Below, one piece after another: positions 5,093-63,772 of a stretch of DNA of 64,000 nt. Under the pieces are notes generated by a model. It was not told where the DNA came from and did not search any database. It saw only the letters and a program-made list of their open reading frames with translations. The stretch comes from Chlorobiota bacterium (GTDB lineage: Bacteria > Bacteroidota > Chlorobiia > Chlorobiales > Chlorobiaceae), in NCBI GenBank assembly GCA_016866305.1, contig VGMX01000014.1, positions 2,161-66,160 of the forward strand, read 5' to 3'. Position 1 is the stretch's first letter. Every line of letters starts with the position of its first letter. Both the position numbers and the translations under genes were made by a program.

Positions 5093-7660
5093 ATGCAGGC
5101 ACCGGAAGAACGACTCGGCTCATTTTATCTCGGCGCTGAATATGATCTTGCCACAGGGCAGCGTCTTGAGAAACCCGTGCACTATGACGCACGCGATCTT
5201 ACCACTCACGCGGTTTGCGTCGGCATGACCGGAAGCGGCAAGACCGGTCTGTGTATCGGTCTGCTTGAGGAAGCCGCGCTCGACCGGGTGCCCGTGATAC
5301 TCATCGATCCCAAGGGCGACATGACCAATCTGCTCCTGCAGTTTCCTGATCTGCTGCCGGAGGATTTCCTTCCCTGGATCAACGAGGATGATGCGCGCAG
5401 AAAAGGCAAATCGACCGAGGAGCTTGCTGCGGCAACCGCCGAGCAGTGGAAAAACGGCCTGGCGGACTGGGGCATCTCTCCGGACAGGATCCGGCAGCTC
5501 GGCAAGTCCGCGGATTACACCATCTATACGCCCGGTTCCGATACCGGCATTTCCGTCAGCATTCTTGGGAGCCTTGCCGCTCCGGATCTCGATTTCGGGG
5601 AGCATGCCGAAACCATCCGGGAACGCATAAGCGGAACGGCAGGTGCCCTGCTCGGGCTGGCCGGCATCAAGGCCGATCCGGTAAGAAGCCGCGAATCGAT
5701 TCTGCTTGCCGCCATTTTCGAGCACTTCTGGAAACAGGGCCAGGATCTCGACATCGCCCTGCTGATAAGCTCGATCCAGAATCCTCCGGTTCGCCAGATC
5801 GGAGTGTTCGACGTCAACACCTTCTTTCCTGAAAAAGAGCGGTTCGAACTCGCCATGTCCTTCAACGCCCTGATTGCCTCCCCTTCCTTCCAGAGCTGGC
5901 TGACGGGCGATCCCCTGGAAATCGACCGGATGCTTCATACCGCCGAGGGCAAACCAAGACACAGCATTTTCTATCTTGCCCATCTTTCGGAAAGCGAACG
6001 GATGTTCTTTGTGACGCTGCTGCTGGAAAACGTGCTGACCTGGACCAGGGCGCAGTCGGGCACATCGAGCCTCAGGGCGCTGCTCTATTTCGACGAAGTG
6101 TTCGGCTACCTGCCTCCGGTTGCCGAACCGTCATCGAAACGTCCGCTCCTGACGCTGCTCAAGCAGGCCAGGGCATTCGGACTCGGGTGCGTGCTGGTGA
6201 CCCAGAATCCGGTCGATCTCGATTACAAGGGCCTCACCAATACCGGAACATGGTTCATCGGCAAACTTCAGGCGGAACGCGACAAGCAGCGGGTGCTTGA
6301 AGGACTGAAAAGCGCCATAGCCGAAGCCGGGGGTTCCGGAGGATCCGTTGATTACGACAGCATCATCAGCCAGCTCGGCAGCCGGGTCTTTCTGCTGCAC
6401 AATGTGCATGAAGACCGCCCGATCGTATTTCAGACCCGCTGGGCCATGAGTTTCCTGTCGGGACCGATGACAAGACCGCAAATCAGGAAGCTTATGGCTC
6501 CCCGCAAAAACATAAAGGAGAGCACCGCATCTGCTGCGGGCCGGCAAAACGGGACTGCATCCGCTGCACCGGAGAACATTCCCGGAAGGGAAACCGCATC
6601 ATCGGTCCCCGGTTCCCTTCCGTACGGGTTCACCGCCACCCCGCCGGGACTCGACCCTGCGGTAAAACAGGTTTTCGTACCGGTCAGGCTTGATGCAAGG
6701 GCAGCCCTTGAGGTACATGCCCGGCTTACGGGAGGCATGCCGGGCGTCACAGCCGAACAGCTGGTCTATGAACCTGGGCTTGTCGGATCGGCATCGGTTG
6801 TGTTTTCCGACCGCAAACGGGGAGTCAACGAAAACAGGAGAGTGCTCCTTGCCTGTTCTGACCAGGGATCCGCTTTGCAGGGCGACTGGGAGAGGGGCGA
6901 AACGCTTGCCGTTCCTCCTGAATCCCTCTCCGACAGACCCGATGAACGCGCCGCGGCATTCGCCGCTCTTCCCGAAGCGCTCAGTACGGCCCGCTCCATT
7001 TCGGCATTCGATCAGCCCCTTGCCGACTGGCTCTACTACAACTCGCGTTTTCAGCTGCATGTTCATCCCGGTACCGGACTTTTCCGCCGCACCGGAGAGA
7101 GCGAGCGGGATTTTGCCATACGCCTTCAGCAGGCCGCAAGGGAAATGCGCGACCGTGAGGTAGATGCCCTTGAAAAGAAGTATGAGTCGCAACTCGATCG
7201 TCTGCGCGAGAAAATCCGCAGGGAAGAGCGCGAACTGCAGCAGGATGAGGCCGAACACCGGAACCGCAAGACCACCGAACTGGTGGGACTCGGCGAAAGC
7301 GTGCTGGGATTCTTTCTCGGCAGGAAAAGCACCCGGAGCATCAACAGCGCCATGAACCGCCGCAGAATGACCGCCAACGCGAAAGCCGATATCGAGGAAT
7401 CGCGGGAGACTCTTGAAGACCTCCAGAGGGAACAGGATGCGATCAGTGCCGAAATGCAGGAACTTGCCCGAGAGATTGCCGCAAGATGGGAAACGCCGGA
7501 ATCATCACTCATCTCCGAGGAGCTTGCTCCCCGCCGCAGCGATGTTACCGTAACCTTTGTCGCACTTGGCTGGCTCCCCTTCTGGAGGATCACCGTTGCC
7601 GCGCAGGATGGAGCCGGAACGCTCACACTGCCAGCTTACGAACTTGCTGAAAAAGCCTGA
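5093..7660 (+). CDS. HerA/DUF87-like P-loop ATPase with C-terminal coiled coil
   Basis: Walker A GMTGSGKT, IDPKGD, Walker B LLYFDE, QARAFG and TQNP motifs; E/R/Q-rich helical region around aa 680-800. Confidence 0.8.
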   Translation: MQAPEERLGSFYLGAEYDLATGQRLEKPVHYDARDLTTHAVCVGMTGSGKTGLCIGLLEEAALDRVPVILIDPKGDMTNLLLQFPDLLPEDFLPWINEDDARRKGKSTEELAAATAEQWKNGLADWGISPDRIRQLGKSADYTIYTPGSDTGISVSILGSLAAPDLDFGEHAETIRERISGTAGALLGLAGIKADPVRSRESILLAAIFEHFWKQGQDLDIALLISSIQNPPVRQIGVFDVNTFFPEKERFELAMSFNALIASPSFQSWLTGDPLEIDRMLHTAEGKPRHSIFYLAHLSESERMFFVTLLLENVLTWTRAQSGTSSLRALLYFDEVFGYLPPVAEPSSKRPLLTLLKQARAFGLGCVLVTQNPVDLDYKGLTNTGTWFIGKLQAERDKQRVLEGLKSAIAEAGGSGGSVDYDSIISQLGSRVFLLHNVHEDRPIVFQTRWAMSFLSGPMTRPQIRKLMAPRKNIKESTASAAGRQNGTASAAPENIPGRETASSVPGSLPYGFTATPPGLDPAVKQVFVPVRLDARAALEVHARLTGGMPGVTAEQLVYEPGLVGSASVVFSDRKRGVNENRRVLLACSDQGSALQGDWERGETLAVPPESLSDRPDERAAAFAALPEALSTARSISAFDQPLADWLYYNSRFQLHVHPGTGLFRRTGESERDFAIRLQQAAREMRDREVDALEKKYESQLDRLREKIRREERELQQDEAEHRNRKTTELVGLGESVLGFFLGRKSTRSINSAMNRRRMTANAKADIEESRETLEDLQREQDAISAEMQELAREIAARWETPESSLISEELAPRRSDVTVTFVALGWLPFWRITVAAQDGAGTLTLPAYELAEKA

Positions 7661-7677
7661 CGCGATGCGCCGGCCCT

Positions 7678-8328
7678 TCAGCCGAAGCCGTTGGACGGTT
7701 TGCGGAAAAAGAGGAAGCCGGCGACTGTAATGACCGCCAGGGCGACTGCCCAGATGCCCAGGGGAAACTCCGCACCGCCCTGATACATGCTGAATGCTCC
7801 GAACAGGAAAAATACAGCTGCCGCACCGGTTTGGATGGCTTTCTCCGGAAGTCTTTTTCCCACTATTTTTCCGGCAATGATGGCAAGACCATCGGAAAGC
7901 ACCATGCCGATGGTCGATCCGATCCAGACGGGAAAAAATGCATTGTTCGTGGCGAGCGTAATGGTGGAGAGCATGGTCTTGTCGCCGAGCTCAGCCATGA
8001 AGAAGGTTGTGAAAACAAGCCAGAACGGGTGCAGTGTTCTTTTGCAGCTCTCATCTCCTTCGTCAAGATGGTCTCCGCGCAGTGTCCAGAAACCGAACAT
8101 GACGAAGGCTATTCCGGCAATGAACCCGATCCAGTCGGATGGAAGCCTTGCACCAAGAAACCAGCCGATTCCCGCGGAAAAGACATGCACGCCGAGCGTA
8201 GCCCAGAAAATGCCCCAGAGCACGGTTTTCGTATTGTAGCAGGTGGCGAGCGTCAGTGCGACAAGCTGGGTCTTGTCTCCGAGTTCAGCAAGAAAGATCA
8301 TTGCAAGAGAAAGCCAGAACGCATCCAT
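7678..8328 (-). CDS. TMEM165/GDT1 (UPF0016) cation transporter
   Basis: Two E-L-G-D-K-T motifs ([22 protein letters not shown]) in a multi-TM protein. Confidence 0.9.
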
Positions 8329-53660: not shown

Positions 53661-54353
53661 TCAGTCGCGGACGCAGCGCACCGACATGCCGTCGATTTTT
53701 TCCTCGCCGCTTCTCACCACGGTTGCGACATGGTAGTTGAGCACCCTGTACCACCCGAGCGAGGGGGAGTGTTCCGCAGAAGTCCAGAAATACGCGCTCT
53801 GTGCACCAAACGCGAAAACGCCGTCGATGCCCCTCAGACCCCCGGGAAGCGCACTGAAGCCGCTCGTGTTTGTTGCTGCCTCGTTCGGGGTGCGCCAGAG
53901 CGAGCGCCCGGCCTCTTTCATTTTTCCTCCGGCGACGGCTTCACCGCCAAGAAAAGCGGTCAATTCCGACCACTCCCTGTCGGTCGGCACATGCCAGCCT
54001 TTTGGGGCCAGACCCCGAGGATCGTTGACGGCATACCAGTTGTACAGACGCCCGAAATTTTTTCCGTTTGCCGGATCGTTGTCGAAGTAGCACCATGCAC
54101 CTTCCCCTTTTGCGGCTGCGTCGAGCCACTCCTCCCTGGTGGCGGCATGCCTGATGGCGTCTCCGTTGCGGTAACGGCTCACCCTCAGATTTTCCGCCGT
54201 CCAGACCTGCTTTCCGGCAGTTATGGCATGGTAGCCGTTTCCGTCGATATCCCTCATCCTGTCATCCGAAGCGCGCAAAGGCACTGAAAAGAGGGTGATT
54301 ACGCTCATGAGAAGCAACATGAGCATTTGCCTGGTAATGTTCCGATGTTTCAT
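53661..54353 (-). CDS. FISUMP (Fibrobacter succinogenes major paralogous) domain secreted protein
   Basis: Signal peptide; DIDGNGY, QVWTAENL, GRLYNWYA, PKGWHVPT..EW, GFSALPGG, FWTS, SVRCVRD; SD GGAGG. Confidence 0.9.
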   Translation of the reverse strand: MKHRNITRQMLMLLLMSVITLFSVPLRASDDRMRDIDGNGYHAITAGKQVWTAENLRVSRYRNGDAIRHAATREEWLDAAAKGEGAWCYFDNDPANGKNFGRLYNWYAVNDPRGLAPKGWHVPTDREWSELTAFLGGEAVAGGKMKEAGRSLWRTPNEAATNTSGFSALPGGLRGIDGVFAFGAQSAYFWTSAEHSPSLGWYRVLNYHVATVVRSGEEKIDGMSVRCVRD

Positions 54354-54428: not shown

Positions 54429-54484
54429 AAAGTAACGGAGGAAAGCTTAAGCGGACTTTAAGCGACACTTAAAAGAGGCTTAAT
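54429..54484 (-). promoter_or_regulatory. 4x TTAA(G) array at 11-bp pitch plus -10 (TACTTT) for the FISUMP gene
   Basis: TTAA at 54447, 54458, 54469, 54480; TAnnnT 11 bp beyond the last TTAAG on the minus strand. Confidence 0.65.
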
Positions 54485-54870
54485 TTTATCGGGATGGAGA
54501 ATCCCTGCAGGTATGGCAGTCCGATATTCCTGGGGGACTGAAAAGCTCCTTGACAAGCCTCCGCCACCGCAGGAAAAACCGGAGTATAACAACCGGGGCT
54601 TATCTTGCCGGCACGGGGAGCCTGGCCTTTCGGGCCGGTACCGTCGCAGACACCTGCTCCCCTAGCGGAAACGACTCGGCTGCCGTTGCCCGATCCATCG
54701 AGAGGGCGTATATAATCCGGGTCCTGACCATTGGGTATGCCGTCGCCATCGCCTCCGCCTATCAGCTGCATGAGGGGATTGTCAAAGAAACCTCCGGCAA
54801 CGGCCGGAACTGCGGGTGAAAGCGCCAATACGGCAACGGCAAGGGCAAACATGCGAACGATTCCTTTCAT
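54469..54870 (-). CDS. Small secreted Gly-rich protein with DGDGIPNGQDPD and CDGTGPKG motifs
   Basis: SD AAAGGAG before ATG 54870; signal peptide ending AVA; TSP3-like DxDG motif; C-terminus possibly extended by a frameshift. Confidence 0.72.
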   Translation of the reverse strand: MKGIVRMFALAVAVLALSPAVPAVAGGFFDNPLMQLIGGGDGDGIPNGQDPDYIRPLDGSGNGSRVVSARGAGVCDGTGPKGQAPRAGKISPGCYTPVFPAVAEACQGAFQSPRNIGLPYLQGFSIPIKLSLF

Positions 54871-54940
54871 GAGGGTGTCTCCTTTGTTCTGGTTGTTGCG
54901 GGGAGAGAGTCTTCGCATACAGCTCCCCTTATTACGAAAG

Positions 54941-54955
54941 GCAATTCACATACCA
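54941..54955 (-). promoter_or_regulatory. Sigma-54 (-24/-12) promoter
   Basis: Minus strand TGGTAT-GTGAA-TTGC (GG-N10-GC), 70 bp before the ATG. Confidence 0.75.
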
Positions 54956-55043
54956 GAAAAGGGAAAAAAATCTATCATATTATTATTCAATCGCTTATGG
55001 AGAAAAAGAAAATGAGAACAACCTGCAGCAAAAGCGTTGATGA

Positions 55044-55077
55044 CAACCGGCTCGTCGCTGTTTCGACGGTATGGGCG
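55044..55077. promoter_or_regulatory. Tandem enhancer (UAS) CAACC-N4-CGTCG / CGACG-N4-GGGCG
   Basis: Two 8/10 matches to CGACC-N4-GGTCG, 20 bp apart, 88 bp upstream of the -24 element. Confidence 0.6.
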
Positions 55078-55127
55078 AAAAGAGTGCTTGTTTCATGAAA
55101 ACCGGCGCCTGGCTGGAGCATATCCCG

Positions 55128-56486
55128 TCATTTCATGCCATATTTCTTCAACTTGTATCGCAGATGGCGCTCGCTGATGCCAAGCATTTCTGCGGCACGC
55201 GTCTGCACCTGACCTGATTCCCTCAGCGCTTCGGTAATCATTTCCTGCTCGAAGGCTTCCACCTTTTCGGTAAAACCGCCTTCAGCAACTTTTGCGCCGG
55301 AAGATTCCGGACGGTATTCGAATACCCGCATCGGAAGATCCTCGGTGGTGATGGTCGAGGCCCGCGAGAGAACGACGGATTGCTGCACGATGTTTTCAAG
55401 TTCACGGACGTTGCCGGGATAGGAATATTTCATCAGGGCATCCATCGCCTCCCTTGAAATTCCGGTAATCTGTTTCCCGTTTTCTTCGCTGAATCGGTGA
55501 AGAAAGGCATCGACAAGGGGAAGTATGTCGTCACGACGTTCCCGCAGGGAGGGAATCCTGATGGAGACGACATTGAGACGGTAGTAGAGATCCGCCCGAA
55601 GCGTCCCCTGGCGAACCATCGATTCGGGATCGCGGTTTGTCGCAGCTACGATCCGTACATCGGCCTCGAGGGGTGTCGAGCTGCCTACTCGTTCGAACGT
55701 TTTTTCCTGCAGTACCCTGAGCAGCTTGACCTGCAGGGAAAGCGGTATTTCGCCGACTTCGTCAATGAACAGAGTGCCGCCCTCCGCCAATTCGAAGCGC
55801 CCCTTGCGCAGCCTGTCAGCACCGGTAAATGCACCTTTTTCGTGACCGAAAAGCTCGCTTTCAAGCAGGGTTTCAGGCAGTGCCGCGCAATTGACGGCAA
55901 CAAAGGGCTTTTCCCTCCGGCTGCCTGAAAAATGAACAGCCCTGGCGATCAGCTCCTTGCCGGTACCGGTCTCTCCGGTAACGAGCACCGATACATTGCT
56001 GGAGGCCACCCTACCGGCAATGTTCATCACCTGTGCCATCGCGGAAGATTGCGATATGATGCCCTGAAAACCGAAACGCTCCGAAAGCTGTGTTCGAAGA
56101 AGGCTGTTTTCGCTGATAAGCTGCTTCCGTTCCAGCGTATTGCGGATCATGATCCTGAGCTGGTGAAGGTCAACCGGTTTGGTGATGTAGTCGATTGCAC
56201 CGAGTTTCATGGCCTCGATAGCCAACTCCACGCTTCCGTAGGCGGTCATGATGACAACCTCGATACCGGGATTCCGGTGCTTCAGTGCCGAAAGCAGTTC
56301 GACTCCGCTCATTTCAGGCATTCTGAAATCGGAAAGCACGATATCGACAGCCTCCTCGGCGGCGATTTCAAGAGCTCTCCGGGGATGCGAAGACTTCAGC
56401 ACCCGATACCCCTGTTTGGAAAGAAAACCGGCGATGCTCTCAAGCTGGACGCTTTCGTCCTCAACCACAAGTATGGTATGATCCAT
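55128..56486 (-). CDS. Sigma-54-dependent response regulator (NtrC/ZraR/AtoC-like)
   Basis: REC domain (VVEDE, SDFRMP), GETGTGKE, ESELFGHEKGAFTGA, FIDE, DLYYRL, C-terminal Fis-type HTH. Confidence 0.95.
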   Translation of the reverse strand: MDHTILVVEDESVQLESIAGFLSKQGYRVLKSSHPRRALEIAAEEAVDIVLSDFRMPEMSGVELLSALKHRNPGIEVVIMTAYGSVELAIEAMKLGAIDYITKPVDLHQLRIMIRNTLERKQLISENSLLRTQLSERFGFQGIISQSSAMAQVMNIAGRVASSNVSVLVTGETGTGKELIARAVHFSGSRREKPFVAVNCAALPETLLESELFGHEKGAFTGADRLRKGRFELAEGGTLFIDEVGEIPLSLQVKLLRVLQEKTFERVGSSTPLEADVRIVAATNRDPESMVRQGTLRADLYYRLNVVSIRIPSLRERRDDILPLVDAFLHRFSEENGKQITGISREAMDALMKYSYPGNVRELENIVQQSVVLSRASTITTEDLPMRVFEYRPESSGAKVAEGGFTEKVEAFEQEMITEALRESGQVQTRAAEMLGISERHLRYKLKKYGMK

Positions 56487-56532
56487 TATTGTCAGCCACC
56501 CGTTATATGAATGATTGCCGAAAAACCGCCGT

Positions 56533-58575
56533 TCACACAGCCGGCAGCACAACCCTGAAGACACTTCCCGCTCCTTCCCTGCTCGAAACCTCGATCATCC
56601 CTCCGTGGGCGTGGACAATCTGGTTGGCGATACTCAGCCCCATACCGGTGCCGTCGTCTTTAGTGGTAAAATAGAGGTTGAATATTTCCGGGAGTTTCGC
56701 GGCAGGAATTCCCGTACCGGTATCGGCAACCTCGATAACCGCCTGGCTCCCACGGCAGAACACCCTTAGCGCAATGTGTCCCCCCTCGGCTGTGGCTTCA
56801 ACGCTGTTTCGAACGATGTTGAGCAGCACCTGCTGCATCTGCTCCCTGTCGAGCTGTACCGTTTTCCGGCACCCGGCATCAAGCGTAAAGCGGACACCTT
56901 TCTTTTCGGCCTCACTCTGCAGTACGGTACTGTAGCTTCCGACAAAGTCGTTAAGATTGACCGGCACCGGCATAAGCTGCGGCGGACGGACGAATTTGAG
57001 AAAGCGCTGGATAATGGCGTTGACGCGGTGCACCTCGGACACCACGGTTCGAACGAGATGGCGGTACTCGGGTTCGTCGGCAGCCGGCGAGAACTCGATA
57101 TCGAGGCGTTGAGCCAGAATACCGATGGCGTTCAGCGGATTCCTGATCTCATGGGCAACTCCGGAAGCCAGCTCTCCCATTGCGCTGAGCTTCTCCTGCC
57201 GGTCGATAACCTGCTGCATGGCACGCTCTTCCGTCAGGTCGCGAAGAACGGCGACAGCCCCCAGGATACGCTCTCCGTTACCGGTTATTCGGCTGAAATT
57301 TCCTGCCAGCAGCCTTTCCCGATCGCCTGCATGGCAGAGAAATTCGCGATTGAAGGCAGCCTCGCTCCCTTCATCCATGATACCGGAAAGAAATTGAGCA
57401 CATTCAGGAAAAACCGCCTGTACGGGTTTGCCTGTCGCTTCGCCGGAAGAGACCCGAAGCAGCTTCTCGGCCGGTCTGTTGATCAGGGTTACGCTCCCGG
57501 CAGCGTCTACCGTAAGAACGGCGTCTGCCATGCTTTCAAGAATGGTGGATGAAAATGTCTGCACCCGCTGGTAGGCGTCTTTTATAACCGTTTCGTTTCT
57601 GCGGCTTATGACGAGGTTGAACATGACAAGCCCTCCGATGGCAACAAGAGTGAACAGCATGAAAAAACGGTTTCGCAGCTTATCGAGGGCCGCGCTGAAA
57701 TGATCGTTTTTCAGACCTATGCGCAAAAGCCCCACATTGGCAGAACCGTAATAAAAGGAATTCACGACTTCAAAAACCGTTCTGCCTTCGAATGCGGTCA
57801 TCCGGGTCAGCGGCTTACGGGTCAGCATGGCCGATTCGAGAAAAGCGTCAGACCGGACGGATGCGGTTTTCGAAACATTGGGCGTGGCGGCCAGAATCCC
57901 GGTCGAGTCCTGCCAGATAATGTAGTCTATACCGGTACTGTCGGCTCCTATACGCTCAATGAGCTGGCCGACGCCAAGTTTCCGGCGCAGATCGAAAAGC
58001 CTTGTCGCATCAACATTTCCGGCAATCACACCACCCCTGCTCCGTTTGACGGCGGCAATCAGACGTGGCCCCCTGTCCGAGGAGCTTTGGCGGATTCCAA
58101 GCAGCAGGGAATCCTTTTGACCGGAAAATATCGGCTGCAGACAGAGCCGGGAGTCACACTGACGTAAGAGAGGGGTATGATCGGGTGGTGAATTGAAAGC
58201 GATGCGCTTTCCCTTGCTATCGAAAATGTTGACGCGGTAGATTCCGCTCGATCCGGCAATTGCTGAAAGCTCCTTCGAAGTCAGCTCGTGCTGTTTATCC
58301 AGGCGGTCCAGAAGGCGGAGCTGATCGATAAGGCTGCCTGTCAGGAGGGAGCTGTTTTCGGTATAGCCGGTGATGGCATTTTCAGCGCCCTCAGACAGCG
58401 CGTGCATGAGCAGTGCAGCCTCCTCGCGCATGATGTGCTCGATCTCGGATTTCCGGTAGTGGTATTCAAAAAGAGCCGTTCCGAGAAACAGGAGCACAAA
58501 AAGGGCAAACGCTGCGCCAAGATACTTCGGCGAAAGCATCATTACCCGTTTTTCCGGAAGCCTGTACTGTTCCAT
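56533..58575 (-). CDS. Sensor histidine kinase (periplasmic sensor, PAS, HisKA, HATPase)
   Basis: Two TMs; AHEIRNPL H-box; NIVRNS, DTGTGI, FTTK.GTGMGL. Confidence 0.93.
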   Translation of the reverse strand: MEQYRLPEKRVMMLSPKYLGAAFALFVLLFLGTALFEYHYRKSEIEHIMREEAALLMHALSEGAENAITGYTENSSLLTGSLIDQLRLLDRLDKQHELTSKELSAIAGSSGIYRVNIFDSKGKRIAFNSPPDHTPLLRQCDSRLCLQPIFSGQKDSLLLGIRQSSSDRGPRLIAAVKRSRGGVIAGNVDATRLFDLRRKLGVGQLIERIGADSTGIDYIIWQDSTGILAATPNVSKTASVRSDAFLESAMLTRKPLTRMTAFEGRTVFEVVNSFYYGSANVGLLRIGLKNDHFSAALDKLRNRFFMLFTLVAIGGLVMFNLVISRRNETVIKDAYQRVQTFSSTILESMADAVLTVDAAGSVTLINRPAEKLLRVSSGEATGKPVQAVFPECAQFLSGIMDEGSEAAFNREFLCHAGDRERLLAGNFSRITGNGERILGAVAVLRDLTEERAMQQVIDRQEKLSAMGELASGVAHEIRNPLNAIGILAQRLDIEFSPAADEPEYRHLVRTVVSEVHRVNAIIQRFLKFVRPPQLMPVPVNLNDFVGSYSTVLQSEAEKKGVRFTLDAGCRKTVQLDREQMQQVLLNIVRNSVEATAEGGHIALRVFCRGSQAVIEVADTGTGIPAAKLPEIFNLYFTTKDDGTGMGLSIANQIVHAHGGMIEVSSREGAGSVFRVVLPAV

Positions 58576-58624
58576 CTTTTTCAGTCATACTCCTGAAAGG
58601 TGTACGCCGCAATCATGAGCGTCC

Positions 58625-59458
58625 TCAAGGGCTGATCATGGTTTCAAGCATTTCGCGCAACCGGCTCATGTCGATGCCGTTTCTATCGGCTATTGCCCTC
58701 AGGGTCATAGCCGGCTCGGCTTCGATGCCTTTTTGCTTCATGGCAAGCTGCAGTGAAGCAGCCGATACGCCAGCTTCATCGGCTACCTCCTGCAGGGTTT
58801 TGCGACCAAGTCCCTCTGCCGGAAGTTTCCTGGCTCCGCTTTTTTCGGGAGCAAGAGGAACGTAAAGCTTTTCGGCCGTCGTATGGTTCTTCAGGGCTAT
58901 CTCCCCAAGGGTCTGCTGAACCGAATCCACCCTGAATCCAGCTTTTTCGAGCTTCGCCTTCAGTATCCCCGCATCACCGCCAAGCCCCGGCTGAAGCGCA
59001 AGCTCGACAAGCGTCATGGTTTCGGCGTGAGGCACCGGTGGCTGCATCTCCCTTTTTTCCCACGACGCCGATACGCTGTTGCCGAAATCGATGATCGCTG
59101 CAAAAGGCTGCAGGGAAGAGTAGGTCCCGACTCCAAAAAGAAGCGCAAGCAGCACGCTGCCGGACAGCTCCAGCGGACTTTTCAGGCCGGCGCTCGTCTT
59201 TGTTTTCAGATACGAGAAGAACGCCTTCCAGTTGAGGACGAAAAGATGGAATATCGAGAGCAGGGCGAAGGCGAAACCGAAAATCGCATGCTGGTTTTCC
59301 CACCCGGTTTTTGTCAGGCCGAGCATGCGCCAGTCCGTCCAGTTCGCCACCCTGCCGGGTGGAGAGATATAGAGAATCACCCCCGAAACAAGCAGCATCA
59401 GAAAGGATAGCAGAAGCCCGAAACTGACAAAAATCCGCCAGCTGAACGATTTTTTCAT
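58625..59458 (-). CDS. DUF4405 (cytochrome b-like) membrane protein with four TLxEIA-type repeats
   Basis: SD AGGAGG 5 nt before ATG 59458; WENQH and IFHLFVLNW TM histidines. Confidence 0.8.
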   Translation of the reverse strand: MKKSFSWRIFVSFGLLLSFLMLLVSGVILYISPPGRVANWTDWRMLGLTKTGWENQHAIFGFAFALLSIFHLFVLNWKAFFSYLKTKTSAGLKSPLELSGSVLLALLFGVGTYSSLQPFAAIIDFGNSVSASWEKREMQPPVPHAETMTLVELALQPGLGGDAGILKAKLEKAGFRVDSVQQTLGEIALKNHTTAEKLYVPLAPEKSGARKLPAEGLGRKTLQEVADEAGVSAASLQLAMKQKGIEAEPAMTLRAIADRNGIDMSRLREMLETMISP

Positions 59459-59471
59459 GTTCACCTCCTCT

Positions 59472-59894
59472 CTACTGGTTCATAAGCCGACCCTTTCCTC
59501 CGCCACCCATACCTCTTCCACGACCCATTGCCGGGTTGTACTGATCCCAGAACCATCCGGTCACGGCCTTGAGCTCAGCATCAGTAAGCTTGATGAGCGG
59601 CATGAGCCCGAAGCGCGTTACCGCCTGCTGATCGACAGCTTTGTTTTTATCGGGTTTTTTCAGAAATGCTGCCATGTGAGCTACACCCTCGGCTTTCGTC
59701 GCAAACTTCTCGTGGTAGCGGTTGGCCAGAGGGATAACCGGCGGAGCGGATTTGGGGGGCGGATTGATGGAGTGACAGACGCTGCAGTTGCGATCGAATA
59801 CCGCCCTGCCGTCAGGCGTTACGGCCGTTGCCGCCGAAGGATGAACCTCCGATACGATTCCAGATAACATAAACACATACAAGATTTTTTTCAT
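59472..59894 (-). CDS. Periplasmic monoheme cytochrome c
   Basis: SD AAAGGAG; signal peptide; CSVCH; candidate distal Met in FGLMP. Confidence 0.88.
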   Translation of the reverse strand: MKKILYVFMLSGIVSEVHPSAATAVTPDGRAVFDRNCSVCHSINPPPKSAPPVIPLANRYHEKFATKAEGVAHMAAFLKKPDKNKAVDQQAVTRFGLMPLIKLTDAELKAVTGWFWDQYNPAMGRGRGMGGGGKGRLMNQ

Positions 59895-60039
59895 GACAAC
59901 ACTCCTTTGATAACAACCATTGCTGAACCTACAGACATCAACTTTGCCCTGCAAAGCATAACGCGGCAGCATCGCCCGGCGTTCTGGCTCCAATCGCCCC
60001 GACGGTTACTCGCGATACTTTCATGGCAATAAGTAAATA

Positions 60040-60054
60040 TCAAAAAACATGCCA
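60040..60054 (-). promoter_or_regulatory. Sigma-54-like promoter with -12 GA variant
   Basis: Minus strand TGGCAT-GTTTT-TTGA; supported by the UAS pair 89 bp upstream. Confidence 0.6.
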
Positions 60055-60143
60055 ATAAGAGAAAACATCACGCAACCTCTTTTTTCAGAAGGCATTACGC
60101 GTCGTTCGGCGTTAACGGCCACAACACTGCAGTATAAGAATTC

Positions 60144-60177
60144 CGACCGAAAGGTCGAAATATCGACCATACGGTCG
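60144..60177. promoter_or_regulatory. Tandem perfect palindromes CGACC-N4-GGTCG x2 (candidate enhancer)
   Basis: CGACC-gaaa-GGTCG at 60144 and CGACC-atac-GGTCG at 60164. Confidence 0.7.
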
Positions 60178-60214: not shown

Positions 60215-60270
60215 TTTAAGCGAAGTTTAAGCTTCTCATGAGAATCCTTTAAGGAAAGGGATGCTACCTT
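60215..60270 (+). promoter_or_regulatory. TTTAAG array at 11-bp pitch plus extended -10 (TGcTACCTT)
   Basis: TTAA at 60216, 60227 and 60249 (60238 degenerate ATGA); -10 at 60265. Confidence 0.68.
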
Positions 60271-60340: not shown

Positions 60341-60889
60341 ATGACATTGAAATCATGGGCAACCCCGCTTGCCATCGGAGCTTTTATCATTTCTGGCGTT
60401 ACAGGTCTTCTGTTATTTTTCGATATTGAAATCGGGCTGGTCGAACCGGTTCACAAATGGCTCAGCTGGCTGCTTCTTGGAGGCATCCTGCTCCATACCG
60501 CTTCGAACTGGAAGGTGTTTACCGGTTATTTCTCGAAAAAAGCCGGCCTTGGAATAATCGGCGCGGCGGCTCTTGTCACGACGCTCTCACTGCTGCCGAT
60601 GTTCGGCGAGGGCGAAGAGGAGCACGGAAAGGAGAGCACCGGAAAAGCCGCCGTGCAGGCGCTCGAATCCTCTTCGCTCGAAACCGTCGCACTGGTTCTG
60701 AAAGCGACACCGGAAGACCTTGCCGCAAGACTTGAAAAAGAAGGCATCGCAGCCACCAATCCGTCCATGACCATCGCCGAGATTGCGCAAAAGAACGGAA
60801 AGGAGGAAAAAATGGTGCTCGGAGCGCTCTTCGGGAAACCCGGAAAGGGCGGAGAGGAGCGGATGGAGGGTGACGAAGACGATCATTAA
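60341..60889 (+). CDS. DUF4405 membrane protein with acidic C-terminal tail
   Basis: SD AAAGGAG; VHKWLS and LLHTASNWK TM histidines; ends EGDEDDH. Confidence 0.82.
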   Translation: MTLKSWATPLAIGAFIISGVTGLLLFFDIEIGLVEPVHKWLSWLLLGGILLHTASNWKVFTGYFSKKAGLGIIGAAALVTTLSLLPMFGEGEEEHGKESTGKAAVQALESSSLETVALVLKATPEDLAARLEKEGIAATNPSMTIAEIAQKNGKEEKMVLGALFGKPGKGGEERMEGDEDDH

Positions 60890-60904: not shown

Positions 60905-61573
60905 ATGCGGATTCTTGTCATCGAGGATGAACCCGGAATAGCGCGCTTTCTCAAGGACGGACTTGAAGAGGAGTATTTTGCCGTCGATCTGGCGTTCGAC
61001 GGCAAAAGTGGCCTTGATATGGCTCTCCTGAACGAGTACGATCTCCTGATCGTTGACTGGATGATTCCGGGCATCAGCGGTATCGAGGTGTGCCGGCAGG
61101 TTCGCAAGGCCGGCATCGATGTGCCGCTGATTTTCCTGACCGCCAAAGACGCCCTCGAGGATATCGTATTCGGCCTCGACGCCGGTGCCAGCGACTACAT
61201 CAGAAAACCGTTCGCCTTCGAGGAGCTGCTTGCCCGCATACGGGTTCAGCTCCGCAGAAACAGCCCCGCCGGCGACCAGCTTACGGCCGGAAGGCTCAGC
61301 GTCAATCCCGTTACCCATCAGGTATTCTGCGGCACCGGAGAGATCATGCTGACCCCGAAGGAGTTTTCCCTGCTGGAGTATCTGGTGCGCAACAAGGAAA
61401 AGGTCTGCACCAGAAGCCGCATCATCGAACACGTCTGGGACATTCATTTCGATTCCGATACCTCGGTAATCGACGTGTATATCAACTTTCTCCGGAAAAA
61501 ACTCGACCATGCAGGGTGCGGAAACATCATTCAGACCATCCGGGGCGTCGGCTACATCATCCGCGAGTCCTGA
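60905..61573 (+). CDS. OmpR/PhoB family response regulator (CusR/CzcR-like)
   Basis: MRILVIEDE, VDWMIP, LTAK, GASDYIRKPF, LTPKEF.LL, DVYI..LRKK, IQTIRGVGY. Confidence 0.95.
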   Translation: MRILVIEDEPGIARFLKDGLEEEYFAVDLAFDGKSGLDMALLNEYDLLIVDWMIPGISGIEVCRQVRKAGIDVPLIFLTAKDALEDIVFGLDAGASDYIRKPFAFEELLARIRVQLRRNSPAGDQLTAGRLSVNPVTHQVFCGTGEIMLTPKEFSLLEYLVRNKEKVCTRSRIIEHVWDIHFDSDTSVIDVYINFLRKKLDHAGCGNIIQTIRGVGYIIRES

Positions 61574-63070
61574 ATGCCGGGCATAAAAAAAAACAGAGGG
61601 TTCGGCCGGAAGCATGCCGGTTCCGTTCAGGAAAAACCTTCCCTGAGCCTGCGCAGCCGCATTGCACTCTATTACACCATCGCGACGGCAATCCTGCTCG
61701 CCCTTGTCTTTACGCTTGTATTTTTCACGGTCGAACGGGTGGTCTACAGCCACTTCGACGACGAGCTCGATCGGGAAGTCTCGGAAATCCTCGAAAAACA
61801 ATCGCATGGAAGATCTGATGTATGGAATTTCGACATCTCCGACGATGACAGCCACAGTGATGAAGGCGGCGATCATCATCACGAAAGAGGGGATGACGAA
61901 AACAGGGATGAAGATGATGAAGAATTTGTCCAGCTTGTCAGTCAGACCGGAAAAGTAATTGCCAGATCGGCTAACCTTGCCGGCGACACCCTCACCTTTC
62001 AACCCGGCGGACAGCAAAAGCGCTTTCGAAGCAGCACCGCCGGTCGGCTCGATGTGCGTCAGGTTCAGGTTCCGCTGGCCGATTCAAAAGGAAAAATCGA
62101 AGGTTACCTCCTCGCGGCGGTTCCCGTTCGGGATGCCGTCACGATTCTCGGCGATCTGAAGCAGGTGCTTCTGCTGTCGTATCCGGCCATTATTCTTACC
62201 CTCTTCATCCTCACAAGAGTTATTGCAGGTCGAAGCATCCGGCCGGTTGAAGAGGTCATTGCCTCGGCAGAAAAAATAACCAGGGAAAATCTCGAACGGC
62301 GCATTCCCCTTCCCCGAAACCAGGATGAACTCTACAGGCTTTCCGCCACAATCAACGCACTGCTCGAACGCCTCCAGGATGCGTTTCAGCGGGAAAAACA
62401 GTTTACATCCGATGCTTCCCACGAACTGAAAACGCCGCTCGCATCCCTGAAAGGCACTCTCGAAGTGCTGGTGCGGAAACCAAGGGAACGCGAACACTAT
62501 GAAGAACGGATCCGCTTCTGTCTTAAAGAGCTGGACCGGATGTCGAGACTGATCGACCAGCTTCTTGTGCTTGCCCGCTACGAAAGCAACGGCATAAAAG
62601 CTCATATGGAATCCGTGGATCCTGGTTGCCATATCAGCGAAGCGATCGGACGGATGCACCCCCATGCTCTGCAGAAAAACATTCCGATCAGTTTTACCGG
62701 GCCGGAATCATGCATGGTTTCGGCTGACCCGGCAATGCTCGACATGATTTTCGAAAATATCCTGTCGAACGCCATCAAGTACTCCCCTTCAGGGTCAACA
62801 GTCTCGGTGACGCTTTCAAACAGCACCGGTTCTGTGCTCTGCAGCATTGTCGATAACGGTATAGGCATTCCGGAAGAAAAGCTTTCAAGGGTTTTCGAAC
62901 GGTTTTACCGGGTTGACGAATCGAGAAGCTCGGGAACCGGGGGGTTCGGTCTCGGGCTCGCTATCGTGAAAAAACTTGCCGACCTGCAGCAGATAGCGGT
63001 AACGATAACAAGCCGCACAGGCACGGGGACAACCATCGAGCTGCGCTTTTCACGTCACGAAAAATTTTAA
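61574..63070 (+). CDS. Sensor histidine kinase (HAMP, HisKA, HATPase) with His/Asp/Glu-rich periplasmic insert
   Basis: FTSDASHELKTP, NILSNAIKY, DNGIGI, FERFYR, GGFGLGL. Confidence 0.94.
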   Translation: MPGIKKNRGFGRKHAGSVQEKPSLSLRSRIALYYTIATAILLALVFTLVFFTVERVVYSHFDDELDREVSEILEKQSHGRSDVWNFDISDDDSHSDEGGDHHHERGDDENRDEDDEEFVQLVSQTGKVIARSANLAGDTLTFQPGGQQKRFRSSTAGRLDVRQVQVPLADSKGKIEGYLLAAVPVRDAVTILGDLKQVLLLSYPAIILTLFILTRVIAGRSIRPVEEVIASAEKITRENLERRIPLPRNQDELYRLSATINALLERLQDAFQREKQFTSDASHELKTPLASLKGTLEVLVRKPREREHYEERIRFCLKELDRMSRLIDQLLVLARYESNGIKAHMESVDPGCHISEAIGRMHPHALQKNIPISFTGPESCMVSADPAMLDMIFENILSNAIKYSPSGSTVSVTLSNSTGSVLCSIVDNGIGIPEEKLSRVFERFYRVDESRSSGTGGFGLGLAIVKKLADLQQIAVTITSRTGTGTTIELRFSRHEKF

Positions 63071-63120
63071 GCGGTTTTTATGCCTTGTTTTATCCCTGCT
63101 TAAGAATCCCCTGATATCTT
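63066..63120 (+). promoter_or_regulatory. TTAAG array at 11-bp pitch plus extended -10 (TGaTATCTT)
   Basis: TTAAG at 63067 and 63100, degenerate TTATG at 63078 and TTTAT at 63089; -10 at 63115. Confidence 0.58.
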
Positions 63121-63193: not shown

Positions 63194-63772
63194 ATGTGGC
63201 AATCCGTGCTTATACAACGGGCTTTACCGCTCACGCTCTCCTACCTGCTGCTCGTTGCTGCAGCGATATCGCTCGATTACATCCTGCATGCCGCCCGTCT
63301 GGCATGGATCGGACGGTATCTGGGAGTTGCCGGAACAGCGTTTCTCGTTTTTTCGTTCGGGTATTCAGCCCGCAAAAAAAAGCTTGTCCGGAGCGGCACG
63401 CTTAAATTTTTTCTCAGGCTCCACTGCAATGCAGGGTGGATCGGAACTCTCATGGTGCTGGTGCATTCAGGTATCCACTTCAATGCGATGCTTCCCTGGG
63501 CGGCTACTGCCTTCATGATGATCGTAACTGCCAGCGGCCATATCGGGCAGTACCTTGTCCGAAAAATCCGGGAAGAGGTGAAAATGAAAAAAAAGCAGGC
63601 CGGCATCACGGAAAATGCCGATGATTTCCCGGACCAGCAGCACTACTGGGACAGCCTGACCGTGAGCGCTCTCGACAGATGGCGAACCATTCATATGCCC
63701 ATCGTTTCCGTGCTGCTTCTTCTCTGCATGCTGCATATCTTTTCCGTTATCTTCTTTCTGAACTGGGAGTAA
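63194..63772 (+). CDS. Multi-TM membrane protein with paired histidines (candidate heme b subunit)
   Basis: LRLHCNAG...LVHSGIHF, WRTIHMP, MLHIF; GTG start. Confidence 0.7.
   Translation: MWQSVLIQRALPLTLSYLLLVAAAISLDYILHAARLAWIGRYLGVAGTAFLVFSFGYSARKKKLVRSGTLKFFLRLHCNAGWIGTLMVLVHSGIHFNAMLPWAATAFMMIVTASGHIGQYLVRKIREEVKMKKKQAGITENADDFPDQQHYWDSLTVSALDRWRTIHMPIVSVLLLLCMLHIFSVIFFLNWE

Follow-up and report, generated by a model that had tools for sequence, protein, structure and literature searches.

Two tandem palindromes in a 64,000-nucleotide stretch of a lake-dwelling Chlorobiota bacterium (contig VGMX01000014.1, positions 2,161 to 66,160; hereafter the window) probably serve as the enhancers, or upstream activating sequences (UAS), of an NtrC-family response regulator encoded between them (55128-56486), a reading to which we assign a probability of about 0.8 from the sequence evidence. 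One pair precedes a putative sigma-54 promoter of an operon specifying a cytochrome c, a DUF4405 membrane protein, a sensor kinase and the regulator itself, and the other a second such promoter upstream of the gene for a small secreted protein. In this arrangement we see the Chlorobiaceae form of a broader module, as yet uncharacterised, whose enhancers share a CGAC-N6-GTCG core.

Exact CGACC-N4-GGTCG palindromes occur only at 60144 and 60164 in the window (0.12 expected). Their centres lie 20 bp apart, and the 34-bp tandem that they form (60144-60177) had zero occurrences in shuffled sequences. The sole other match in the window with up to four mismatches is the copy at 55044-55077, which has 4 mismatches in 20 specified bases; 300 dinucleotide shuffles gave an expectation of 0.053 such tandems per window. 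Orthologous sites, without those of the window and its near-twin locus L125, were used for a position weight matrix, which scored the operon tandem at 40.1 bits and the small-gene tandem at 23.0 bits, and the next-best non-overlapping position at -1.0. The gap between tandem and -24 element is 89 bp at the operon and 88 bp at the small gene. Thus, the coordinates, sequences and 88/89-bp geometry put forward in an earlier sequence-only reading of this DNA were all confirmed.

The -24/-12 elements alone are not significant, since the two that lie next to the tandems are the only matches to TGGYAY-N5-TTGM in the 64 kb (54941 and 60040) and 0.78 would be expected by chance. At 54941-54955, the GG and GC dinucleotides of a sigma-54 promoter are both present, 10 bp apart. 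Orthologues of the 60040 element read TGGCAT/C-N5-TTGA or TTGC (TTGC in 5/8) at equal distance to the enhancer, and those of the small-gene promoter read TGGCAC-N5-TTGT, TTGC or TTGA, 86-90 bp from the enhancer. Transcripts are predicted to start near 60028 for the operon and near 54929 for the small gene. Scans of the window for sigma-70 promoters and terminators gave counts not above those of shuffles and nothing at the palindromes. In four metatranscriptome runs, short contigs of a 93-95% identical relative span the cytochrome c and DUF4405 genes with no 5' end, which shows that both genes are transcribed in that relative.

The regulator combines all parts of an NtrC-type enhancer-binding protein: a receiver domain (Response_reg, 7.7e-29) with the conserved Asp in LSDFRMP, an AAA+ domain (Sigma54_activat, 2.6e-73; AAA_lid_14) with Walker A GETGTGK at residue 171 and GAFTGA at residue 218, and a Fis-type helix-turn-helix (HTH_8, 3.1e-13). 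It is the sole GAFTGA protein within the window, and its helix-turn-helix (HTH), VQTRAAEMLGISERHLRYKLKKYG, is kept in all Chlorobiaceae orthologues. The four genes from cytochrome c to regulator are all on the minus strand with intergenic gaps of 13-49 bp, and the kinase (56533-58575) has a periplasmic Cache-like domain of ~260 aa between two transmembrane segments. Green sulfur bacteria do have rpoN, as exemplified by CT1193 in Chlorobaculum tepidum (10.1101/172254). Haem b binding has been demonstrated for one DUF4405 member, and the family has been proposed to act as transmembrane electron carriers (PMC11334425).

The 20 specified bases of the tandem, searched for as an exact pattern in 185,579 species with one genome each, were found at 44 loci, 5 of them in Chlorobiaceae. 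All five lie at the two promoter positions described here, with a promoter 86-89 bp off: two upstream of the cytochrome c operon and three just past the regulator stop and before the small gene. None of the 39 exact hits outside Chlorobiaceae has a sigma-54 element at the conserved distance, L097 having a sigma-54-like match 182 bp away. Among these hits, Actinobacteria (L083, L091, L093, L096, L117 and L122) carry a near-identical tandem, TCGACCACGTGGTCG-N6-CGACCNGGTGGTCGG; since Actinobacteria lack sigma-54, theirs is presumably the site of an unrelated regulator. Nine further exact-tandem loci come from one Planctomycetales metagenome-assembled genome, and eight of them (L088, L092, L095, L104, L108, L116, L119 and L121) have the repeat unit CCGACCCCCGGGTCGG..CGACCCGGTGGTCGG in common, an indication of a dispersed repeat family.

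Orthologous loci were fetched with the DUF4405 protein as query, the activator having retrieved only relatives of up to 57% identity among the matches listed; this gave 41 loci, ~39 of them from Chlorobiaceae, on which genes were mapped by tblastn. Every tandem with up to four mismatches in 535 kb of Chlorobiaceae loci (22/22) precedes a TGG[CT]A[CT]-N5-TTGN element that points at the next gene, at a gap of 86-90 bp in 21 sites and 76 bp in one. The paired site keeps its distance to the promoter element in about twenty related genomes. Conservation of the motif in orthologous loci, which had been proposed as a check, is therefore borne out. The operon enhancer is kept in L286 and, with a gap of 89-90 bp, in seven further orthologous loci (L125, L126 and L130-L134). 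At the small-gene position, tandems are perfect in L081, L089, L111 and L146 and degenerate in the window. The consensus is a 16-bp dyad, TCGACC-ATAT-GGTCGA, with nearly invariant CGAC/GTCG and variable loop bases. A comparison of six diverged promoters gave similar identities for the enhancer (0.72) and the -24/-12 element (0.71), a lower one for the spacer (0.43), the length of which is constant, and the lowest for the flanks (0.30-0.32), which is a classical phylogenetic footprint with spacing preserved. The 22 enhancer-promoter spacers are AT-rich (0.46-0.79). The hallmarks of a UAS, i.e., at least two dyads 80-150 bp upstream, conserved and co-occurring with an activator, are all found at these loci. 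The Chlorobiaceae-type tandem with promoter was found in 0 of 80 loci of more distant activators (up to 57% identity).

The loci fall into three gene orders. Type A, that of the window, runs cytochrome c, DUF4405, kinase, regulator and, in parentheses here for its optional presence, (small gene). Type B runs (small gene), kinase, regulator, small1, small2, outer-membrane barrel, cytochrome c, dihaem cytochrome and DUF4405, often followed by dsrC-dsrA. Type C consists of cytochrome c, (dihaem cytochrome) and DUF4405, with no kinase or regulator within ~7 kb. Enhancer and promoter stand upstream of cytochrome c in all eight type A loci with upstream sequence and in 0 of 11 type C loci, a contrast with an exact probability of ~1e-5 by a hand calculation that ignores shared ancestry. 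Upstream regions of type C are AT-rich and have other conserved motifs and no GG-N10-GC. In seven loci without kinase and activator (L137, L139, L141, L143, L144, L152 and L162), a conserved TTAACAATTG..N..CACAATTGTTAC lies ~250-330 bp upstream of cytochrome c, and a different regulator may control the cytochrome c genes there. In type B, the enhancer sits past the regulator gene and ahead of small1. L150 and L287 have a second enhancer with promoter ahead of the unit of small gene, kinase and regulator; thus, autoregulation would recur in a different gene order. These patterns are consistent with the proposal that the regulator activates its own operon, since enhancer and sigma-54 promoter precede the kinase/activator genes both in the order of the window and in L150/L287.

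In many Chlorobiaceae, the predicted regulon genes (small1, small2, a 388-aa barrel, cytochrome c, dihaem cytochrome and DUF4405) lie directly upstream of dsrC-dsrA, which belong to sulfur oxidation; this adjacency is seen in L146 (4232-9842) and also in L148, L149, L153, L154 and L335.

In the product of the small gene, a signal peptide is accompanied by one or two DxDGDGI(N/P)N..DPDY repeats, and the C terminus carries GVCDGTGPKG..RGRR; the version in the window carries the repeat DGDGIPNGQDPDY and the GVCDGTGPKG motif. It matched no Pfam or NCBIfam family. By our own reading, the repeats (DxDGDGIPNGQDPDY) resemble thrombospondin type 3 repeats. The protein had been described as secreted and Gly-rich; secreted it is predicted to be, but it is better termed a thrombospondin-type-3-like repeat protein.

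Homologues of this small protein take the module beyond the family. There are 275 of them, none with a Pfam domain or an informative name, from lineages that include Acidobacteriota, Calditrichaeota and Aminicenantes. Two viewed in their genomic context are encoded by the first gene of an operon that continues with genes for a barrel-like protein of ~420 aa, a MamS-like protein and a kinase with its sigma-54 activator, and upstream of both operons are TGGCAC-N5-TCGC promoters with tandem CCGACA-N4-TGTCGG. A metagenome scan with an alignment of the small protein then yielded 80 loci, and a kinase and a sigma-54 activator lie beside the small gene in nearly every contig long enough to tell. Among 38 distinct sigma-54 promoters upstream of small genes, 31 lie within 150 bp of an exact CGAC-N6-GTCG (background, 0.03 per 150 bp) and 21 have a partner palindrome 20-21 bp away. 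Enhancer gaps cluster at 53/74 bp in a broad clade and at 86-91/106-110 bp in a Chlorobiaceae-like clade. Moreover, the inner position of the palindromes varies with the HTH of the adjoining regulator: C or G prevails with VQTRAAE.LGISERHLRYK (TCGACC-N4-GGTCGA type), and CGACA..TGTCG is found in 8/9 palindromes with VKSRAARALGITERMLAYK (KSRAAR..ERMLAYK class). This covariation is the strongest computational argument for the activators binding these sites.

The cross-phylum loci (L281-L284 and most of L292-L364) thus resemble those of Chlorobiaceae in having a homologous small protein, a kinase with a sigma-54 activator and the CGAC-N6-GTCG core. They differ in that the inner bases are A/T, the sites are 21 bp apart (20 bp in Chlorobiaceae), the gap to the -24 element is 53 bp (88 bp in Chlorobiaceae), the HTH reads KSRAARALGITERMLAYK, and cytochromes are missing. 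Conservation of the module across phyla is essentially shown. The conserved geometry, together with the variant in other phyla, makes the motif very probably the binding site of the regulator. The claim that this is the binding site of a green sulfur bacterial system stands as far as its presence there is concerned, but not its specificity, because the core of small protein, kinase, activator and enhancer recurs in other phyla. The regulator as binder of the motif is supported both by the restriction of the site to loci where kinase and activator adjoin and by the HTH covariation.

We tentatively suggest, as an idea with the odds still against it, that CGAC-N6-GTCG marks an unrecognised cross-phylum envelope signalling module of a thrombospondin-type-3-like protein, an outer-membrane barrel, a kinase and an activator, with the small protein as its conserved output, onto which Chlorobiaceae recruited an electron-transfer set. 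By analogy with ZraP and CpxP in their systems, the small protein could possibly be a feedback partner of the kinase. The barrel protein and the MamS-like protein had no match among the families of Pfam or NCBIfam. A redox reading of the cross-phylum module was tried and rejected, its MamS_MamX neighbour having no CXXCH motif; the cytochromes are therefore an addition specific to Chlorobiaceae. The set recruited there comprises a cytochrome c, a dihaem cytochrome and the DUF4405 haem b protein, often directly upstream of dsrCAB, and from this position one may speculate that the Chlorobiaceae module links the metabolism of electron donors to a metal or redox cue in the periplasm. The cytochromes, the dsr genes, the Met-rich tails described below and a CopRS-like neighbour provide only hints of a periplasmic metal or redox function. 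In the Acidobacteriota-like loci L281-L284 (~6190-7750, minus strand), the small-gene operon is divergent from an operon whose products comprise an extracytoplasmic function (ECF) sigma factor and an anti-sigma factor as well as a MacAB-TolC-type efflux system, along with a faint match to LTXXQ; this is an envelope-stress context.

In the mechanism that we propose, the Cache/PAS kinase (56533-58575) would phosphorylate the regulator, dimers of which would bind two 16-bp sites (TCGACC-N4-GGTCGA) with centres 20 bp apart at about -122 and -142. The bound regulator would oligomerise, the ~88-bp AT-rich spacer would loop, and contact would be made with sigma-54 RNA polymerase at TGGYAY-N5-TTGM, where the regulator would open the promoter using ATP. 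The promoter at 60040-60054 would then drive the cytochrome c, DUF4405, kinase and regulator genes, amounting to positive autoregulation, and that at 54941-54955 the gene for the small secreted repeat protein. What the sequences show directly is the elements with their conservation and geometry, their joint occurrence with the regulator, their covariation with its DNA-binding helix, and its domain content; binding to the sites, a dependence on sigma-54, the points of transcript start, the operon structure and the sensed signal are inferred.

Several observations weigh against this mechanism. The -12 element at 60040-60054 reads GA, the C of the consensus GC being replaced by A. The 64-kb window encodes no RpoN box, and rpoN is assumed for the source genome. 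None of the RNA runs searched covers the small gene or the KB01 locus. An integration host factor (IHF) site (WATCAA-N4-TTR, up to one mismatch) is not conserved in the 22 spacers, with the limit that this consensus is enterobacterial and may not fit Chlorobiaceae. The relaxed pattern (two copies of CGAC-N6-GTCG) gave at least 120 matches dominated by high-GC genomes and does not define the full regulon. The absence of the activator from type C loci refers to the ~7 kb of fetched flanks and not to whole genomes. L135 has no recognisable enhancer upstream of its DUF4405-kinase-activator genes; autoregulation is therefore not universal. In the window, lastly, the small-gene enhancer is degenerate, matching 16/20 bases and scoring just 5.4 bits in one of its halves, and the gene itself bears a deletion and a terminal frameshift.

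This last point feeds the most serious alternative, namely that only the operon promoter is functional and that this strain is losing the small gene along with its activation, the enhancer at 55044-55077 being a relic in decay. Relative to L125, the gene has lost 36 bp in frame (junction 54752/54751), and with them one DxDGDGIN repeat, and a single inserted nucleotide (54605/54606) lets its reading frame run past the stop codon of the orthologues at 54600-54602 and adds ~33 non-homologous residues; its enhancer has 4/20 mismatches, compared with 0-3 in relatives, one of them the extra change from GGTCG in L125 to GGTTG in the proximal palindrome. The damage is nonetheless limited, as the deletion stays in frame, the frameshift touches just the last codon before adding its tail, and the variant is present on nine independent contigs, which shows that it is not an assembly error. 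The -24/-12 element continues to match well (GG..GC), and the score of the distal palindrome is still 17.6 bits; with NtrC, one strong and one weak site can suffice for cooperative activator binding. We therefore regard such a decay as possible but rather doubtful. The small-gene promoter may nevertheless be poorly functional, or this arm of the regulon weakened, in this strain. The claim that the regulator activates the small gene consequently finds support in the conserved promoters and enhancers of its orthologues, but it has to be qualified for the window, where gene and site are partly degraded.

A factor other than the sigma-54 activator might instead bind the palindromes, such as the divergently encoded OmpR/CopR-like regulator (60905-61573) or an unlinked one, with the activator binding elsewhere. 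The tandem at 60144-60177 does lie in an intergenic region common to the divergent operon of DUF4405b, OmpR-type regulator and kinase, and identical tandems in Actinobacteria, which lack sigma-54, indicate that other protein families can use such sequences. However, the motif occurs in many loci devoid of the OmpR-type operon, which is limited to the window, L125, L126 and L286, and the OmpR-type regulator has a different candidate site, TTAAGC-N5-TTAAGC at 60216-60232. The motif is, moreover, missing wherever the activator is missing, keeps a fixed distance to -24/-12 and covaries with the activator HTH, all of which makes another binder improbable. Even less credible is the notion that the palindromes are not protein sites but chance occurrences, a hairpin terminator after the regulator gene or a dispersed repeat. 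A 5-bp hairpin could form at each palindrome, the 55044 pair lies 54 bp past the regulator stop, and one Planctomycetales genome has 9 copies of a similar repeat. Shuffles, on the other hand, give expectations of 0 to 0.05; neither site has a T-run or a terminator call, and upstream of the 60144 pair there is no gene for it to terminate. The bases themselves (CGAC/GTCG) are kept, not mere pairing, while the loop varies, and the 64 kb hold two copies only, both at promoters. Binding by the NtrC-family regulator thus remains our preferred reading.

Features of the window discussed in the text, with positions numbered from its first nucleotide
Feature	Position	Strand	Evidence or remark
-24/-12 element of the cytochrome c/DUF4405/kinase/activator operon, TGGCATGTTTTTTGA (TGGCAT-GTTTT-TTGA)	60040-60054	-	
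-24/-12 element of the small secreted-protein gene, TGGTATGTGAATTGC (TGGTAT-GTGAA-TTGC)	54941-54955	-	
Operon enhancer, promoter-distal palindrome, CGACCATACGGTCG	60164-60177	-	Exact match; 22.3 bits; centre about -142
Operon enhancer, promoter-proximal palindrome, CGACCGAAAGGTCG	60144-60157	-	Exact match; 17.8 bits; centre about -122
Small-gene enhancer, promoter-distal palindrome, CGACGGTATGGGCG (+ strand)	55064-55077	-	8/10 core bases; 17.6 bits; stronger half
Small-gene enhancer, promoter-proximal palindrome, CAACCGGCTCGTCG	55044-55057	-	8/10 core bases; 5.4 bits; weak
Monohaem cytochrome c with signal peptide and Met/Gly/Arg-rich C-terminal tail; operon gene 1	59472-59894	-	Pfam Cytochrom_C, E = 2.7e-7
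DUF4405 membrane protein	58625-59458	-	Pfam DUF4405, E = 1.9e-17
Sensor histidine kinase (Cache-like periplasmic domain, PAS, HisKA, HATPase)	56533-58575	-	Domain matches
NtrC-family response regulator/sigma-54 activator (receiver, AAA+ with GAFTGA, Fis-type HTH)	55128-56486	-	Pfam, motif search
Small secreted protein with signal peptide	54469-54870	-	Open reading frame (ORF) and orthologue comparison
TTAAGC-N5-TTAAGC repeat	60216-60232	+	
TTAAGC-N5-TTAAGC repeat	63067-63083	+	
TTAAGC-N5-TTAAGC repeat	54447-54463	+	
TTAAGC-N5-TTAAGC repeat	54467-54483	-	

Divergent from cytochrome c lies a second DUF4405 gene (DUF4405b, 60341-60889), followed by the OmpR-family regulator (60905-61573) and a kinase. 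Best curated matches of this regulator/kinase pair are heavy-metal CopR/CopS-type families, with scores below cut-off, and the kinase has a His/Asp-rich periplasmic loop. TTAAGC-N5-TTAAGC direct repeats of 11-bp period have 4 matches in the window against 0.07 expected. The copy at 60216-60232 is upstream of the divergent DUF4405b/OmpR-type regulator/kinase operon and is kept in L085 and L098; that at 63067-63083 is upstream of a membrane-protein ORF (63194-63772); and those at 54447-54483 lie between the small gene and a Fib_succ_major-domain gene (53661-54353). The neighbouring CopR/CopS-like system probably binds at these repeats, which would represent a second, independent regulon nearby. 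The cytochrome c tail (59472-59540, minus strand) is Met/Gly/Arg-rich, reading NPAMGRGRGMGGGGKGR in the window and MGMGRGMGMGQGRGM in L146 (6223-6741). Such tails recall Met-rich Cu(I)-binding motifs, and the small and MamS-like proteins also end Gly/Arg-rich.

How green sulfur bacteria regulate their genes has been little explored. In Chlorobaculum tepidum, sigma-54/RpoN motifs have been linked only to nifH and CT0644, one HSP20 gene (10.1101/172254). Our result gives an uncharacterised two-component system a motif, a geometry and a target set of cytochrome c, haem b DUF4405 and secreted repeat proteins, with adjoining dsr genes in many species. The literature search, which covered the text of open papers, returned nothing on the motif, on regulation of DUF4405 or on rpoN of Chlorobium, and the text of papers on the sigma-54 regulons of Desulfovibrio and across phyla makes no mention of motif or module. 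The impression that the motif is undescribed thus holds, as no paper or curated family was found for it or for the module. Recurrence of the enhancer core with its target gene could help annotate a widespread family of sigma-54 activators and hypothetical envelope proteins.

Among known systems, NtrC at glnAp2 uses two dyads about two helical turns apart, ~110-140 bp upstream of GG-N10-GC, and DNA looping. The window, with centres at about -122 and -142, is alike in geometry, whereas its motif is TCGACC-N4-GGTCGA instead of the TGCACC-N5-GGTGCA of NtrC, and it has no link to nitrogen genes. The regulator does not belong to the NtrC family proper by curated model (424 bits; cut-off, 559). The highest NCBIfam similarity, together with an equal domain architecture, is to AtoS/AtoC (regulator, 520 bits; kinase, 303 bits). 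Membership was rejected here too, the cut-offs being 714 for AtoC and 646 for AtoS, with no ato genes nearby. The AtoC site consists of two 20-bp repeats that are not known to be related to the motif of the window.

The ZraS/ZraR system of E. coli, to which the sequence-only reading had likened the window, acts through upstream inverted repeats on sigma-54 promoters of its own operon and of the neighbouring gene for a small periplasmic protein. As an analogy the comparison is apt, an NtrC-family regulator and its kinase having their own operon and a small secreted-protein gene as (here predicted) targets; as a statement of membership it fails, with 416 bits against a cut-off of 760 for ZraR and 206 against 479 for ZraS. 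CGAC-N6-GTCG does not occur in the Shigella zraP-zraS locus (L050). Unlike ZraP, the small protein lacks an LTXXQ/ZraP domain and falls into none of the Pfam families. The genes in the window are co-directional with two separate enhancers, whereas those of Zra diverge around one shared enhancer, and the Chlorobiaceae operon adds cytochrome c and the DUF4405 haem b protein. A tandem palindromic enhancer with a sigma-54 promoter is a textbook mechanism, and in this sense nothing here is conceptually new. The kind of element is ordinary; its motif and regulon are apparently undescribed, and the conservation of enhancer core and signature target across phyla is what our analysis adds to the picture drawn from NtrC, AtoSC and ZraSR.

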